A stretch of 64,000 nt of DNA from assembly GCF_048403405.1 (NCBI RefSeq), contig NZ_CP183129.1, one strand, 5' to 3'. This document shows, piece by piece, positions 8,554 to 56,413 of the stretch (within the stretch, counting starts at the first letter, position 1; every line of letters starts with the position of its first letter). The notes under the pieces are model-generated. The model saw only the letters and a program-made list of their open reading frames with translations, was not told where the DNA came from and did no database searches. Both the position numbers and the translations under genes were made by a program. This stretch comes from Escherichia coli. Lineage in GTDB: Bacteria > Pseudomonadota > Gammaproteobacteria > Enterobacterales > Enterobacteriaceae.

Positions 8554-8748
8554 GTCTGATGCGACGCTGGCCTGATAAGACGCGGGCAGCGTCGCATCAG
8601 GCATCGTGTGCAAATGTCGGATGCGATGTGAACGCCTTATCCGACCTACAAGACCTTACATATCAACGTATTAAAATTATAGATACTGATAAGACGCGCC
8701 AGCGTCGCATCGGACATCTTGTGCAAATGTTGGATGCGGCATAAACAC
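8554..8748. repeat. BIME/REP cluster (several palindromic units) between yacG and mutT
   Basis: Repeated gcctgatgcgacgc / gcgtcgcatcaggc / ggatgcg...cttatccgacctac palindromic-unit motifs. Confidence 0.8.
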
Positions 8749-9161: not shown

Positions 9162-9189
9162 AAAAAAGGCGCAGAATCCTGCGCCTTTT
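9162..9189 (-). terminator. Rho-independent terminator downstream of secA
   Basis: Stem aaaggcgcag/ctgcgccttt followed by a T-run on the minus strand. Confidence 0.6.
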
Positions 9190-9206
9190 ACTTCAACTGT
9201 TAGCTT

Positions 9207-11912
9207 TTATTGCAGGCGACCATGGCACTGCTTGTATTTTTTACCAGAACCGCACGGGCAAGGATCGTTACGTCCTACTTTACGTTCACCGGTTTGCGCC
9301 GCCAGTGCAGCAGCGGCTGCAGAGTCGTCATCCTGATGGCTAAGCTGCTGCATCTGCGCTAAACGCTCGGCTTCCATACGACGCTGTTGTTCCAGCTCCT
9401 CAACCTCTTCAGGCATACGTACCTGAACTTTGCTCAGCGTACTGATAACTTCATATTTCAACGACTCCAGCATCGCTGCAAACATGGAGAACGATTCACG
9501 TTTGTATTCCTGCTTCGGATCTTTCTGTGCATAGCCACGCAGGTGGATACCCTGACGCAGATAGTCCATCGCTGCCAGGTGCTCTTTCCACAGGGAGTCA
9601 AGCGTTTGCAGCATGACGCCTTTCTCGAAGTGACGCATCATCTCTGCACCAACCACTTCTTCTTTACGCTGATACACTTCGATGGACTGCGCCAGAATGC
9701 GCTCACGCAGCGTCTCTTCATGCAGTTCTGGTTCTTTATCCAGCCACTCGGCAATTGGCAAATCAAGGTCGAAATCGTTCTTCAGACGTTCCTGCAGCCC
9801 CGGAATATCCCACATTTCTTCCAGCGACTGTGGTGGAATGTAGGCATCAATGGTCGCTTTGAACACATCTTCACGAATGCTGTTGATGGTTTCGCTCACA
9901 TCGCTGACATCCAGCAGTTCGTTACGCTGGGAGTAAATGGCGCGACGCTGATCGTTAGCCACGTCATCATATTCCAGCAGTTGCTTACGAATGTCGAAGT
10001 TACGACTTTCAACTTTACGCTGGGCGTTGGCAATCGCTTTAGTCACCCACGGGTGTTCAATGGCTTCGCCTGGCTTCATACCCAGTTTACGCATCATGCC
10101 GGATACTCGGTCGGAAGCAAAAATACGCATCAGCGCATCTTCCATCGACAGGTAGAAACGGGAAGAACCAGCATCCCCCTGACGACCAGAGCGACCGCGC
10201 AACTGGTTATCGATACGACGGGATTCGTGACGCTCGGTACCGATGATATGCAGGCCACCTGCTGCCAGTACCGCATCGTGACGTACCTGCCAGTCGGCTT
10301 TAATTTTTTCAATTTGCTCTGCGGTCGGATTTTCCAGCGCGGCAACTTCTGCCTGCCAGCTACCACCGAGCACAATATCTGTACCACGACCCGCCATGTT
10401 GGTCGCGATAGTCACCGCAGCCGGATAACCTGCCTGAGCAACAATCGCCGCTTCGTTGGCGTGGAATTTGGCGTTCAGGACGTTGTGCTTAATACCGGCT
10501 TTGGTCAGTTCGTTTGACACCAGCTCAGATTTTTCGATGGAGATAGTACCCACCAGCACCGGCTGGCCTTTCGCAGTACGTTCTTTGATATCTTCAATGA
10601 TCGCCTGAATTTTTTCTGCTTCAGTCATGTAGACCAGGTCCGGCAGATCTTTACGAATCATTGGACGGTTGGTCGGAACAACGACGGTATCCAGCTTGTA
10701 GATGGAGCTGAATTCGAAAGCTTCGGTATCAGCAGTACCGGTCATCCCCGCCAGTTTTTCATACAGACGGAAGTAGTTCTGGAAGGTGATCGAAGCCAGC
10801 GTTTGGTTTTCGTTCTGGATCTGCACACCTTCTTTCGCTTCCACAGCCTGGTGCAGACCATCGGACCAGCGACGGCCCTGCATGGTACGACCGGTGTGTT
10901 CGTCAACGATGATAACTTCACCATCTTTAACGATGTAGTCGACGTCACGGGTAAACAGCGCATGAGCGCGCAGCGCCGCCGTTACGTGGTGCATCAGCAT
11001 GATGTTTGCCGGAGAGTACAGAGACTCCCCTTCATCCATGATGCCTTCTTTCACCAGCAGTTCTTCAATCAGGACCAGACCACGTTCGGTCAGGTTCACC
11101 TGGCGAGATTTTTCGTCCACCGAGAAGTGGCCTTCGCCCTGGAAGGTTTCGGAGTCTTCTTTTTCCTGACGGATCAGGTGCGGAATAATTTTATTCACGC
11201 GTTTATACATTTCCGAGCTGTCTTCTGCCGGGCCGGAAATGATCAGCGGTGTACGCGCTTCATCGATCAGGATGGAGTCCACTTCGTCCACCAGCGCATA
11301 GTGCAGTTTACGCTGTACACGTTCTTCAGGGCTGAACGCCATGTTATCGCGCAGGTAGTCAAAGCCGTATTCGTTGTTCGTACCGTAAGTGATGTCAGCT
11401 GCGTAAGCTTCACGCTTCGCCGGTGCTGGCATGCCCGGCAGGTTGATACCGACAGTCAGGCCAAGGAATTCAAACAGCGGACGGTTGTTTTCGGCGTCAC
11501 GTTGCGCCAGGTAGTCGTTGACGGTAACAACGTGTACGCCCTTACCGGTTAATGCGTTCAGGTAAGCAGGCAGCGTTGCGGTCAGGGTTTTACCTTCACC
11601 GGTACGCATTTCGGCGATGCAGCGTTCGTTAAGAACCATACCGCCGAGTAACTGAACGTCGAAGTGACGCATACCAAAGACGCGCTTACTTGCCTCACGC
11701 ACCACGGCGAAAGCTTCCGGGATCAGATTTTCCAGCACTTCGCCTTTTTCCAGACGTGCACGAAACTCTGCGGTTTTCCCTTTCAGTTCTTCGTCGGAGA
11801 GTTTTTCCATCTCCGGTTCCATGGCATTGATGATGTTAACCACTTTGCGCATCCGGCGCAGGGTGCGATCGTTACGACTACCGAAAACTTTAGTTAATAA
11901 TTTGATTAGCAT
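9207..11912 (-). CDS. secA: Preprotein translocase ATPase SecA (901 aa)
   Basis: Full-length ORF, C-terminal zinc site [14 protein letters not shown]. Confidence 0.98.
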
Positions 11913-13734: not shown

Positions 13735-14886
13735 TTAATCAGCTTGCTTACGCAGGAATGCTGGGATATCCAGATAATCCGGCTCTTTCGCAGTTTGCGG
13801 CGCATTGTCATTCACAACTTTAGCAACCGGCTTCTGCTCCTGGGTCAGCGGAGCCATCCCGTGCTGCTGGTAGCGATCCATCACTGGCTGCTGAACCTGC
13901 TTATTGGTCACCAGAGTGATTTCAGGACGTTTGTCCATGCCGATACCTGTCGCAACAACAGTTACACGCAGCTCGTCATTCATATCCGGGTCAAGAGAAG
14001 TACCGATAACCACAGTCGCGTTGTCGGAAGCAAATGCACGGATGGTGTTACCTACCGTTTCGAACTCATCCAGACGCAGGTCGAAGCCCGCTGTGATGTT
14101 AACCAGCACGCCGCGCGCGCCAGACAGGTCGATATCTTCAAGCAGCGGAGAAGAGATAGCCATTTCAGCAGCTTCTTCCGCACGGTCTTCACCGCTCGCC
14201 ACGCCAGAACCCATCATTGCGTAGCCCATTTCAGACATTACGGTGCGTACGTCTGCAAAGTCCACGTTCATCAAACCCGGACGAGTAATCAGTTCGGCGA
14301 TACCTTGCACAGCGCCTTTGAGTACATCGTTCGCTGCGCCAAACGCATCCAGCAGGGAGATACCGCGGCCCAGAACTTTCAGCAGTTTGTCGTTCGGGAT
14401 AGTGATCAGAGAGTCCACATGTTTGGACAGTTCAGTGATCCCCTGCTCCGCGAATGCCATACGCTTCTTGCCTTCAAAGTTGAAAGGCTTAGTGACGACA
14501 GCAACGGTCAGGATACCCAAATCTTTTGCCACTTCAGCGACGACTGGAGCTGCGCCTGTACCGGTACCACCACCCATACCCGCAGCAATAAAGACCATGT
14601 CTGCACCTTCCAGCGCCGCACGCAGTGCATCGCGATCCTCATCAGCCGCATTACGGCCAACTTCTGGATTAGCGCCAGCGCCCAGTCCTTTGGTGATACC
14701 GCTACCGATTTGAATCGTCTGTCCAACCGCTGTTTTACGCAGCGCTTGTGCATCGGTATTTACCGCGAAGAATTCAACACCTTCAATGCGCTCGCGCACC
14801 ATGTGTTCAACAGCATTACCGCCGCCGCCGCCGACGCCGATGACTTTAATCACCGCGTCATTGGTAAGTTCCATTGGTTCAAACAT
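13735..14886 (-). CDS. ftsZ: Cell division GTPase FtsZ (383 aa)
   Basis: Tubulin signature GGGTGTG; full length. Confidence 0.98.
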
Positions 14887-14946
14887 AGTTTCTCTCCGAT
14901 TTGTGCCTGTCGCCTGAGGCCGTAATCATCGTCGGCCTCATAAAAA

Positions 14947-16209
14947 TTAAAACTCTTTTCGCAGCCAACTATTGAGTCGCTTGATCCACGAGCCAACTGA
15001 TGCTGTAACACGTTTTTCTACTTCAGCTTCACCGTTAAGATGTGACTCTTTTCCATAGTGAAGCAATCCCACCGCCGTCGAATAATACGGCTCCTGAGCA
15101 TAATCCGTTAAACCGGTAATGTTCAGCGGCGCGCCGATACGCACTTGCGTATGAAACACGCGCTGAGCACAGGCTGCAAGACCTTCAATCTGCGCTGCGC
15201 CACCAGTTAATACAATGCCTGCCGCCAGGTGATGTTTAACCCCTTGTTGGCGAAGCTTTTCCTGCAACTGCAATATCTCTTCGTTGACCAGGTTGAGCAG
15301 CTCGGTATAGCGCGGCTCGATCACCTCTGCCAGGGTCTGACGTTGCAGACTCCGCGGCGGACGACCGCCTACGCTCGGCACTTCCACGCTCTCATCTTTT
15401 CCAACGATGGAACCCAGCGCACAACCGTGGCGAACTTTAATCGCTTCGGCGTCGCTTGGCGGCGTGCCAAAGGCGTAAGCGATATCACTGGTCACGACAT
15501 TGCCAGCATAAGGAATTACCTTAGTGTGGCGCAATGCCCCACCGGTATAAACGGCGATATCCATTGTACCACCACCGATATCGACGACGCAGACACCCAG
15601 TTCACGTTCATCTTCCGTCAATACCGAATAACTTGATGCCAGTCCAGCAAATATCAGTTGGTCAACTTTCAGCCCACAACGTTCAACCGCTTTGACGATG
15701 TTTTTCGCCATATCGTTGTGACATGTGATCAGGTGCACTTTTGCCTGCATCCGCACGCCCGAAAGTCCTACCGGATTCTTGATCCCTTCCTGATAGTCAA
15801 TCGCATACTCTTGCGGGATCACATGCAGCACACGGTGTTCATCGCGCACACGCACCGATTTCGCGGTATGGACGACGTTTTCCACATCTTCTTGCGTTAC
15901 TTCTTCTTCAGAAATAGGCACCATACCAATTTCATTCTGGCAGCTGATGTGCTTACCAGAAAGCGCCAGATATACCGAAGAGATCTGACAATCTGCCATC
16001 AATTCTGCCTGGTCAATGGCGCGTTGTACGCACTTGACCACGGATTCGAGGTCGTTCACCCCGCCTTTATCCATACCACGCGACGGGCAGCTGCCCACGC
16101 CAATGATATTGACCATACCGTCGGGCAGAACTTCCCCTACTAAAGCGGCAACCTTCGCGGTACCAATCTCCAGTCCTACTACCAGTTTTCTGTCCGTCGC
16201 CTTGATCAT
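14947..16209 (-). CDS. ftsA: Cell division protein FtsA (420 aa)
   Basis: Actin-like ATPase; order ftsQ-ftsA-ftsZ. Confidence 0.98.
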
Positions 16210-53123: not shown

Positions 53124-53146
53124 GTAGCTGCATCAGGTGTGTAACG

Positions 53147-53227
53147 CCTGATGCGACGCTGGCGCGTCTTATCAGGCCTACACGCTGTGATTTTGTAGGC
53201 CGGATAAGCAAAGCGCATCCGGCATTG
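53147..53227. repeat. BIME/REP palindromic units between araA and araD
   Basis: gcctgatgcgacgctggcgcgtcttatcaggcctac and gtaggccggataagcaaagcgcatccggc. Confidence 0.8.
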
Positions 53228-53265
53228 TTTTCCCCCTCGCCCCTTTGGGGAGAGGGCCGGGGTGA
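53225..53265. repeat. GC-rich intergenic repeat (boxC-like), copy 2
   Basis: ccccctcgcccctttggggagagggccggggtgaggggaaa; paralogous to 47776..47814. Confidence 0.5.
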
Positions 53266-53291
53266 GGGGAAACGACCTCTCAGGAGTCAAC

Positions 53292-53987
53292 ATGTTAGAA
53301 GATCTCAAACGCCAGGTATTAGAAGCCAATTTGGCGCTGCCAAAACATAACCTGGTCACGCTCACATGGGGCAACGTCAGCGCCGTTGATCGCGAGCGCG
53401 GCGTCTTTGTGATCAAACCTTCCGGCGTCGATTACAACGTCATGACCGCTGACGATATGGTCGTGGTCAGCATCGAAACCGGTGAAGTGGTTGAAGGAAC
53501 GAAAAAGCCCTCCTCCGACACGCCAACTCATCGGCTGCTCTATCAGGCATTCCCGTCCATTGGCGGCATTGTGCATACGCACTCCCGCCACGCCACCATC
53601 TGGGCGCAGGCGGGCCAGTCAATTCCGGCAACCGGTACCACCCACGCCGACTATTTCTACGGCACCATTCCCTGCACCCGCAAAATGACCGACGCAGAAA
53701 TCAACGGTGAATATGAGTGGGAAACCGGTAACGTCATCGTAGAAACCTTCGAAAAACAGGGTATCGATGCGGCGCAAATGCCCGGCGTCCTGGTCCATTC
53801 TCACGGCCCATTTGCATGGGGCAAAAATGCCGAAGATGCGGTGCATAACGCCATCGTGCTGGAAGAGGTCGCTTATATGGGGATATTCTGCCGTCAGTTA
53901 GCGCCGCAGTTACCGGATATGCAGCAAACGCTGCTGAATAAACACTATCTGCGTAAGCATGGCGCGAAGGCATATTACGGGCAGTAA
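53292..53987 (+). CDS. araD: L-ribulose-5-phosphate 4-epimerase AraD (231 aa; start at [11 protein letters not shown])
   Basis: Track ORF 53262..53987 has an N-terminal extension; class II aldolase fold. Confidence 0.96.
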
Positions 53988-53990
53988 TGA

Positions 53991-54006
53991 CTGTATAAAA
54001 CCACAG
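53991..54006. promoter_or_regulatory. LexA (SOS) box upstream of polB
   Basis: CTGTATAAAACCACAG fits CTGT-N8-ACAG, about 55 nt upstream of the polB GTG. Confidence 0.8.
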
Positions 54007-54020
54007 CCAATCAAACGAAA

Positions 54021-54048
54021 CCAGGCTATAATCAAGCCTGGTTTTTTA
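54021..54048 (+). terminator. Hairpin plus T-run after araD (araBAD terminator), with a TATAAT in its loop that may be the polB -10
   Basis: ccaggct-ataatc-aagcctgg followed by tttttt. Confidence 0.55.
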
Positions 54049-54061
54049 TTGGATTTTCAAC

Positions 54062-56413
54062 GTGGCGCAGGCAGGTTTTATCTTAACCCGACACTGGCGG
54101 GACACCCCGCAAGGGACAGAAGTCTCCTTCTGGCTGGCGACGGACAACGGGCCGTTGCAGGTTACGCTTGCGCCGCAAGAGTCCGTGGCCTTTATTCCCG
54201 CCGATCAGGTTCCCCGCGCTCAGCATATTTTGCAGGGTGAACAAGGCTTTCGCTTGACGCCGCTGGCGTTAAAAGATTTTCACCGCCAACCGGTGTATGG
54301 CCTTTACTGTCGCGCCCATCGCCAGTTGATGAATTACGAAAAGCGCCTGCGTGAAGGTGGCGTTACCGTCTACGAGGCCGATGTGCGCCCGCCAGAACGC
54401 TATCTGATGGAGCGGTTTATCACCTCTCCGGTGTGGGTCGAGGGTGATATGCGCAATGGCGCTATCGTTAATGCCCGTCTGAAACCGCATCCCGACTACC
54501 GTCCGCCGCTCAAGTGGGTTTCTATTGATATTGAAACCACCCGCCACGGTGAGCTGTACTGCATCGGCCTGGAAGGTTGCGGGCAGCGCATCGTTTATAT
54601 GCTGGGGCCAGAGAATGGCGACGCCTCCGCGCTCGATTTTGAACTGGAATACGTCGCCAGTCGCCCGCAGCTACTGGAAAAACTCAACGCCTGGTTTGCG
54701 ACTCACTATCCCGATGTGATCATCGGCTGGAACGTGGTGCAATTCGATCTACGAATGCTGCAAAAACATGCCGAGCGTTACCGTATTCCGCTGCGTCTTG
54801 GACGTGATAACAGCGAGCTGGAGTGGCGCGAGCACGGCTTTAAAAACGGCGTCTTTTTTGCCCAGGCCAAAGGGCGACTGATTATCGACGGTATCGAGGC
54901 GCTGAAATCCGCGTTCTGGAATTTCTCTTCATTCTCGCTGGAAACCGTCGCTCAGGAGTTATTAGGCGAAGGAAAATCTATCGATAACCCGTGGGATCGG
55001 ATGGACGAAATTGACCGCCGTTTCGCCGAAGATAAACCTGCGCTGGCAACTTATAACCTGAAAGATTGCGAGCTGGTGACGCAGATCTTCCACAAAACTG
55101 AAATCATGCCGTTTTTACTCGAACGAGCGACGGTGAACGGCCTGCCGGTGGATCGGCACGGCGGTTCGGTGGCAGCGTTTGGTCATCTCTATTTTCCCCG
55201 AATGCATCGCGCTGGTTATGTCGCGCCTAATCTCGGCGAAGTGCCGCCACACGCCAGCCCTGGCGGCTATGTGATGGATTCGCGGCCAGGGCTTTATGAT
55301 TCGGTGCTGGTGCTGGACTACAAAAGCCTGTACCCGTCGATCATCCGCACCTTTCTGATTGATCCCGTCGGACTGGTGGAAGGCATGGCGCAGCCTGATC
55401 CAGAGCATAGCACCGAAGGTTTTCTCGATGCCTGGTTCTCGCGGGAGAAACATTGCCTGCCGGAGATTGTGACTAACATCTGGCACGGGCGCGATGAAGC
55501 CAAACGTCAGGGTAATAAGCCGCTTTCGCAGGCGCTGAAGATCATTATGAATGCCTTTTATGGCGTGCTTGGCACCACCGCCTGCCGCTTCTTCGATCCG
55601 CGCCTGGCGTCGTCGATCACCATGCGTGGTCATCAGATCATGCGGCAAACCAAAGCGTTGATTGAAGCGCAGGGCTACGACGTGATCTACGGCGATACCG
55701 ACTCAACGTTTGTCTGGTTGAAAGGCGCACATTCGGAAGAAGAAGCGGCGAAAATCGGTCGTGCACTGGTGCAGCACGTTAACGCCTGGTGGGCAGAAAC
55801 GCTGCAAAAACAACGACTGACCAGCGCACTGGAACTGGAGTATGAAACCCATTTCTGCCGTTTTCTGATGCCAACCATTCGCGGAGCCGATACCGGTAGT
55901 AAAAAGCGTTATGCCGGGCTGATTCAGGAGGGCGATAAGCAGCGGATGGTGTTTAAAGGGCTGGAAACCGTACGCACCGACTGGACGCCGCTGGCCCAGC
56001 AGTTTCAGCAGGAGCTTTACCTGCGTATCTTCCGCAACGAGCCATATCAGGAGTACGTCCGCGAAACCATCGACAAACTGATGGCGGGTGAACTGGATGC
56101 GCGGCTGGTTTACCGTAAACGCCTTCGCCGTCCGCTGAGCGAATATCAGCGTAATGTTCCGCCTCATGTACGCGCCGCTCGCCTTGCCGATGAAGAAAAC
56201 CAAAAGCGCGGTCGCCCCTTGCAATATCAGAACCGCGGCTCCATTAAGTACGTATGGACCACCAACGGCCCGGAGCCGCTGGACTACCAACGTTCACCAC
56301 TGGATTACGAACACTATCTGACCCGCCAGCTACAACCCGTGGCGGAGGGAATACTCCCTTTTATTGAGGATAATTTTGCTACACTTATGACCGGGCAACT
56401 TGGGCTATTTTGA
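54062..56413 (+). CDS. polB: DNA polymerase II PolB (783 aa, GTG start)
   Basis: B-family polymerase motifs (DIETT exo, YGDTDS pol); full length. Confidence 0.97.

Follow-up and report, generated by a model that had tools for sequence, protein, structure and literature searches.

The junction between araD and polB in Escherichia coli raises the question of how two transcription units that run in the same direction, one sugar-induced and very strong, the other damage-induced and weak, can share a 74-bp junction without cross-talk. An initial annotation of the sequence had proposed that the spacer holds a LexA box and a hairpin, that the hairpin is the araBAD terminator, and that this terminator is physically interleaved with an SOS-regulated promoter of polB.

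Genomic context of the spacer

The window (the whole 64,000-nucleotide stretch of DNA that was analysed) contains the araD-polB locus of E. coli, with araB, araA, araD and polB all on the plus strand. Over the 661 bases around the spacer, identity is 100% to strain Ecol_316 and 97.3% to K-12, and both araD and polB are annotated at matching loci in more than 5,300 complete genomes. The two genes that border the spacer are:

53292..53987, plus strand, araD (L-ribulose-5-phosphate 4-epimerase), from the open reading frame list and the RefSeq annotation of the identical strain Ecol_316
54062..56413, plus strand, polB (DNA polymerase II), with a GTG start, from the open reading frame list and RefSeq annotation

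The last gene of araBAD, araD, has a translation that begins MLEDLKRQV and ends in a TAA stop codon at 53985-53987. Bounded by this stop and by the polB GTG at 54062, the spacer occupies 53988-54061, and the length of 74 bp given initially is exact. K-12 coordinates were transferred to the window by the relation that the K-12 coordinate equals 119842 minus the window coordinate.

An Rfam search of the spacer returned no family and only sub-threshold chance matches. Elsewhere in the window Rfam matches were found to naRNA4, STnc40, PssrA, the leucine operon leader, SgrS and the TPP riboswitch (window positions 8569-8646, 9162-9231, 14878-14967, 36469-36618, 41377-41603 and 44380-44479), all of them expected in this region of the E. 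coli chromosome. Between araA and araD, the 168 bp at 53124-53291 are taken up by stacked REP/BIME-type inverted repeats (GCCTGATGCGACGC..., GCCGGATAAG...CATCCGGC).

Structure and stability of the hairpin

The hairpin comprises the following parts:

54017..54027, plus strand, 5' arm GAAACCAGGCT, from folds, with core CCAGGCT at 54021-54027
54028-54034, plus strand, loop ATAATCA, 7 nt
54035..54045, plus strand, 3' arm AGCCTGGTTTT, from folds, with core AGCCTGG at 54035-54041
54042..54047, plus strand, T6 run, the putative U-tract of the ara-transcript terminator and, in the polB mRNA, positions +4 to +9

The anatomy is that of an intrinsic terminator, a 7-bp G+C-rich core followed by U6 and beginning 30 nt past the araD stop, with the core arms lengthened by GAAA/UUUU to 11 pairs. 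Typical intrinsic terminators have a shorter loop than this one (7-9 nt). The predicted folding energy of the 74-nt spacer is -21.8 kcal/mol (z = -5.1), and 0 of 200 shuffled sequences were as stable; the 41-nt hairpin core reaches -16.2 kcal/mol (z = -6.1). The hairpin described in the initial annotation is therefore real and stable, and the TTTTTT reported behind it is present at 54042-54047, but the loop had been given as ATAATC and is the 7-nt ATAATCA. A simple terminator scan called the hairpin on the minus strand only; the plus-strand call is missing because the maximal stem takes up four of the six T's.

On the minus strand the hairpin (window 54018-54044) scores as a terminator, with an A-tract GAAA upstream, a tail CGTTTGATT and a fold of -15.4 kcal/mol; no convergent gene ends there. 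We also considered whether the palindrome is a copy of a REP-like repeat and rejected this, as it is single in the window and its sole other match has two mismatches and is non-palindromic.

The polB promoter and its LexA operator

The promoter elements overlap with the hairpin and with one another:

53991..54006, no strand, LexA operator (SOS box) CTGTATAAAACCACAG, from a pattern search, at -48 to -33 from the polB start
54004..54009, plus strand, putative weak -35 hexamer CAGCCA, read from the sequence
54027..54032, plus strand, polB -10 hexamer TATAAT (TATACT in K-12), from the sequence, its fixed geometry and allele counts
54039..54039, plus strand, polB transcription start (K-12 65803), with an uncertainty of a few nt, within the 3' arm

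In SMRT-Cappable-seq data the gene b0060 (polB) forms an operon alone, with a start at 65803 on the reverse strand of K-12 (Yan et al. 2018, Supplementary Data 2; PMC6131387). By coordinate transfer this is window position 54039, 7 nt past the last T of the hexamer and within the 6-8 nt that are expected downstream of a sigma-70 -10 element, which bears out the earlier statement that the hexamer is correctly placed for polB. Table offsets of a UV-response tiling-array study place the UV-induced polB transcript start at about 54036, some 3 nt from 54039 (PMC3009722). The part of the Cappable-seq supplement available as text (Ettwiller 2016) has no entry at 65800-65805. In 49 columns of the PRECISE compendium, none of them arabinose-induced, polB expression is at a log-TPM of 4.4-6.7 where araBAD is deleted or close to zero, and polB must therefore have a promoter of its own.

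The hexamer is shared between promoter and hairpin. Its first T is the stem-closing base and bases 2-6 (ATAAT) lie within the loop, so that the description of a TATAAT inside the loop applies to all but its first base. A perfect -10 hexamer, as claimed initially, is present in this strain but is allele-specific, since K-12 MG1655 carries TATACT. Both alleles are common: a 40-mer with TATAAT occurs in 2403 and one with TATACT in 2931 complete E. coli genomes. Window position 54031, base 5 of the hexamer and part of the loop, is thus a common A/C polymorphism within the species. Between the T-run and the GTG, K-12 differs from this strain by a further two or three bases.

Upstream, the candidate -35 hexamer CAGCCA stands 17 bp from the -10, within the usual 16-18 bp spacing, and it begins with the CAG that closes the LexA box; with 3/6 matches to TTGACA, it falls short of a sigma-70 -35 hexamer. 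A consensus promoter scan found 0 sites at the polB promoter because CAGCCA fits the consensus at just three of six positions. The 5' arm of the hairpin doubles as the promoter spacer, with a G at -14, and the promoter apparently leans on this G and on the -10. A review reports that full expression of polB needs RpoS (Dapa et al. 2017, cited in PMC6590174). A C at -13 together with the TATACT allele would fit a sigma-S-friendly -10, and these bases may be linked with the RpoS dependence.

The LexA box CTGTATAAAACCACAG conforms to the 16-bp CTG-N10-CAG palindrome with a TA-rich centre. Its left half fits the consensus and its right half is divergent (AACCACAG); the box was called consensus initially, which is right for CTG-N10-CAG but not for the full TACTG(TA)5CAGTA, which is absent. 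The motif CTGT-N8-ACAG occurs at 3 sites in the 64-kb window against 0.6 expected, and the two further sites are without an A/T-rich core. Given the published start at 54039, the box overlaps the putative -35 and hence the core promoter of polB. To cover the -35 is the usual mode by which LexA blocks initiation at SOS promoters. Binding of LexA to this box is predicted here from the sequence, and the literature gives polB as UV/SOS-induced with such a motif; in the tiling-array study polB is among the UV-induced genes, with this LexA motif given (PMC3009722).

Conservation in Enterobacteriaceae

We searched 100,044 species genomes with residues 1-300 of PolB and compared the best 80 of 414 loci, all from Enterobacteriaceae. 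Among these, araD lies directly upstream of polB, with a spacer of up to 215 bp, in 58 sequences, and is displaced by 740-1500 bp with another gene in between in 20 loci. The inserted gene is an opposite-strand DUF4751 gene in Salmonella and some Citrobacter, and elsewhere a same-strand DUF218 gene or a membrane ORF. The stem, scored as kept when at least 8 of 9 pairs are canonical, is retained in 56 of the 58 araD-adjacent sequences versus 9 of the 20 with an inserted gene (Fisher p ~1e-6, which ignores shared ancestry; best 80 of 414 loci).

Salmonella, C. sedlakii, Pseudocitrobacter, Phytobacter and Superficieibacter have lost the 3' arm but kept the LexA box, most of the 5' arm and the TATAAT, and the 3' arm is therefore dispensable for the promoter. 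Displaced araD genes mostly carry a different strong hairpin of their own, 3-27 nt past the stop (for example -18.6 kcal/mol in Pseudocitrobacter and -20.8 kcal/mol in Phytobacter). In two loci (L071, L082) a co-directional gene follows araD without a hairpin of its own, and the polB hairpin is retained; the hairpin is absent from seven loci whose inserted gene is co-directional and lies directly 5' of polB. Pluralibacter gergoviae (L074) has lost the hairpin even though araD is adjacent. The T-rich tail is retained in hairpin-bearing loci. The fate of the 3' arm is what would be predicted for a terminator of incoming transcription, and this comparison of sequences supports such a function.

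The promoter side shows a fixed geometry. A CTGTA-N8-CAG box precedes polB in 79 of the 79 loci that cover that stretch, among the best 80 of 414. Of the 81 sequences in this set, 79 have a gap of 20 nt between the box and the hexamer (TATAAT/TATACT), and two have one of 21 nt.

Another type of LexA box, CTGTACAAAA...CAG, usually followed by TA, is found in most loci where a gene separates araD from polB (L010, L012-L015, L021, L023, L027, L031, L037, L042, L043, L049, L052, L058). It is located about 72-79 nt 5' of the polB start and is more palindromic than the E. coli type CTGTATAAAACCACAGCC. The two box types suggest two promoter 'alleles' that would have separate histories.

At -13 the base C has changed to T (GGTTATAAT vs GGCTATAAT) in eight loci that lack the 3' arm (L012, L013, L027, L031, L037, L043, L049, L074), a change that arose in several separate genera, as if the C were held mainly by its pairing in the stem. 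Phytobacter-type loci (L042, L052, L058) have lost the arm and kept the C. Spacers in Klebsiella, Raoultella and some Enterobacter are 155-215 bp long, against about 80 bp elsewhere, and keep the hairpin; the extra 80-130 bp, located between the araD stop and the LexA box, hold no convincing ORF (L034, L036, L038, L041, L045, L048, L050, L051, L055, L056, L059, L069, L079).

Termination, initiation and alternative explanations

We consider it probable that the 57 bp from 53991 to 54047 work in two ways, on DNA as a LexA-repressed promoter and on RNA as the intrinsic terminator of the ara operon. LexA bound to its box (-48 to -33) would cover the weak -35 CAGCCA, and RNA polymerase would engage the strong -10 (TATAAT here, TATACT in K-12) together with the G at -14 and start at about 54039. 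RNA arriving from the ara promoter would fold the same stretch into the G+C-rich hairpin followed by U6, and the araBAD transcripts would end about 8-12 nt into the polB transcription unit. That the hairpin and U6 end these transcripts as an intrinsic terminator is most likely. The polB start lies within the 3' arm, so the 5' arm is missing from the polB mRNA, in which the hairpin cannot form. The terminator would thus hit only transcripts that come from upstream; it is blind to those of polB because they start inside the 3' arm. Strong ara transcription would in this way be kept off polB, leaving polB to control by LexA and reportedly also RpoS. The interleaving postulated in the initial annotation accordingly stands for the promoter, whose start is mapped, and is probable for termination; the hairpin as araBAD terminator gains support from its anatomy and its context-dependent conservation. 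Term-seq tables (Adams 2021) list an internal polB 3' end at 63552 and no 3' end at K-12 65793-65797, but as the cultures were not grown on arabinose they are uninformative on ara.

The inverted repeat can also be read on the DNA level, with ACCAGGC-N9-GCCTGGT as the operator of a dimeric regulator that acts on the polB -10 and without any RNA terminator. Half-sites at constant spacing would suit an operator, as would the near invariance of AACCAGGC across 59 sequences and the conservation of the 5' arm (AACCAGG) even where its partner arm is lost, from which it follows that part of this conservation has a promoter-level or other cause. However, Salmonella, Pseudocitrobacter, Phytobacter and others retain the LexA box and the -10 yet do without the 3' half, and the loss of this half goes with a displaced araD, which is unexpected for a regulator of polB. 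The stem core is nearly invariant in the 59 sequences and covariation says little either way, with one compensatory change, from A-U to G-C in L077. One-sided changes that result in G.U pairs number seven in the sense RNA vs one in the antisense, which is a signature on the RNA level, and the repeat is followed by a T-rich tail. We regard such an operator as very unlikely.

Somewhat less remote, but still quite improbable, is that the hairpin is a fortuitous or vestigial palindrome, with the ara transcript ended by Rho or reading through and polB in part induced by arabinose. Termination at the hairpin is indeed deduced rather than taken from measured 3' ends of ara transcripts, and polB is reportedly arabinose-responsive in RNA-seq work on the AraC regulon, which would imply at least a leaky terminator. 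A palindrome with read-through fits the conservation pattern poorly, however, because 56 of 58 genomes with an adjacent araD retain the 3' arm and a separated araD mostly has another hairpin behind it; the strong canonical stem with U6, and the listing of polB as an operon of its own by SMRT-Cappable-seq, likewise speak against it. A role as 5' leader or attenuator of the polB mRNA, for which the frd terminator in its relation to ampC offers a precedent, would agree with a hairpin that follows the LexA box and precedes the polB start codon. The start at 54039 (about 54036 by tiling array) falls after the 5' arm, though, so that the hairpin cannot form in this mRNA, and folding of the polB mRNA from 54039 shows no structure in its first 26 nt. 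We regard this role as ruled out by the start position and give it next to no credence.

Implications

An intrinsic terminator of ara interleaved with the polB promoter would represent a simple trick of insulation, in which the downstream start is set inside the 3' arm of the upstream terminator, and the polB/ara junction may serve as a textbook and design example of compact insulation. Caution is also advisable where ara deletions or pBAD-style constructs on the chromosome take out or preserve the junction. The understanding of SOS or ara regulation is unchanged. The TATAAT/TATACT polymorphism may bear on strain differences in the level of Pol II and in RpoS dependence.

A wider interpretation, which we hold to be rather unlikely, is that the layout is a selected design throughout Enterobacteriaceae, in which arabinose-driven transcription over the LexA operator alters polB output and the U-tract makes initiation UTP-sensitive. 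If it were true, heavy ara transcription ending on the polB -10 to +10 region would displace LexA or occlude the promoter, with a measurable effect on polB output, and so link the SOS polymerase to the carbon source in cells growing on arabinose, and the U-tract at +4 to +9 could confer UTP sensitivity on polB initiation via reiterative transcription.

Comparison with known systems

All components of this junction have long been known and are mapped in K-12; the present analysis contributes the comparison of the 3' arm across loci and the census of -10 alleles. Searches of the literature available in full text returned no explicit discussion of the overlap between the polB promoter and the araBAD terminator, and those on the araBAD terminator and arabinose read-through returned nothing relevant. 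By coordinate transfer, the SOS promoter of polB (dinA) and the end of araBAD in E. coli K-12 are the same locus, with the same box, hairpin and start; the hexamer is TATACT there and TATAAT here, the difference lying at 54031 in the loop.

Canonical SOS promoters such as those of recA, lexA, uvrA and umuDC likewise have a CTG-N10-CAG operator that overlaps the core promoter, whereas in polB the right half of the box is more divergent and bases are shared with a terminator. The closest parallel in arrangement is the frd terminator and ampC attenuator, where tandem genes likewise have the intrinsic terminator of the upstream operon inside the control region of the downstream gene. The ampC promoter, however, lies upstream of the hairpin, so that its own transcripts contain the hairpin and are attenuated, in contrast to polB, whose transcripts start inside the 3' arm, do not contain the hairpin and escape.
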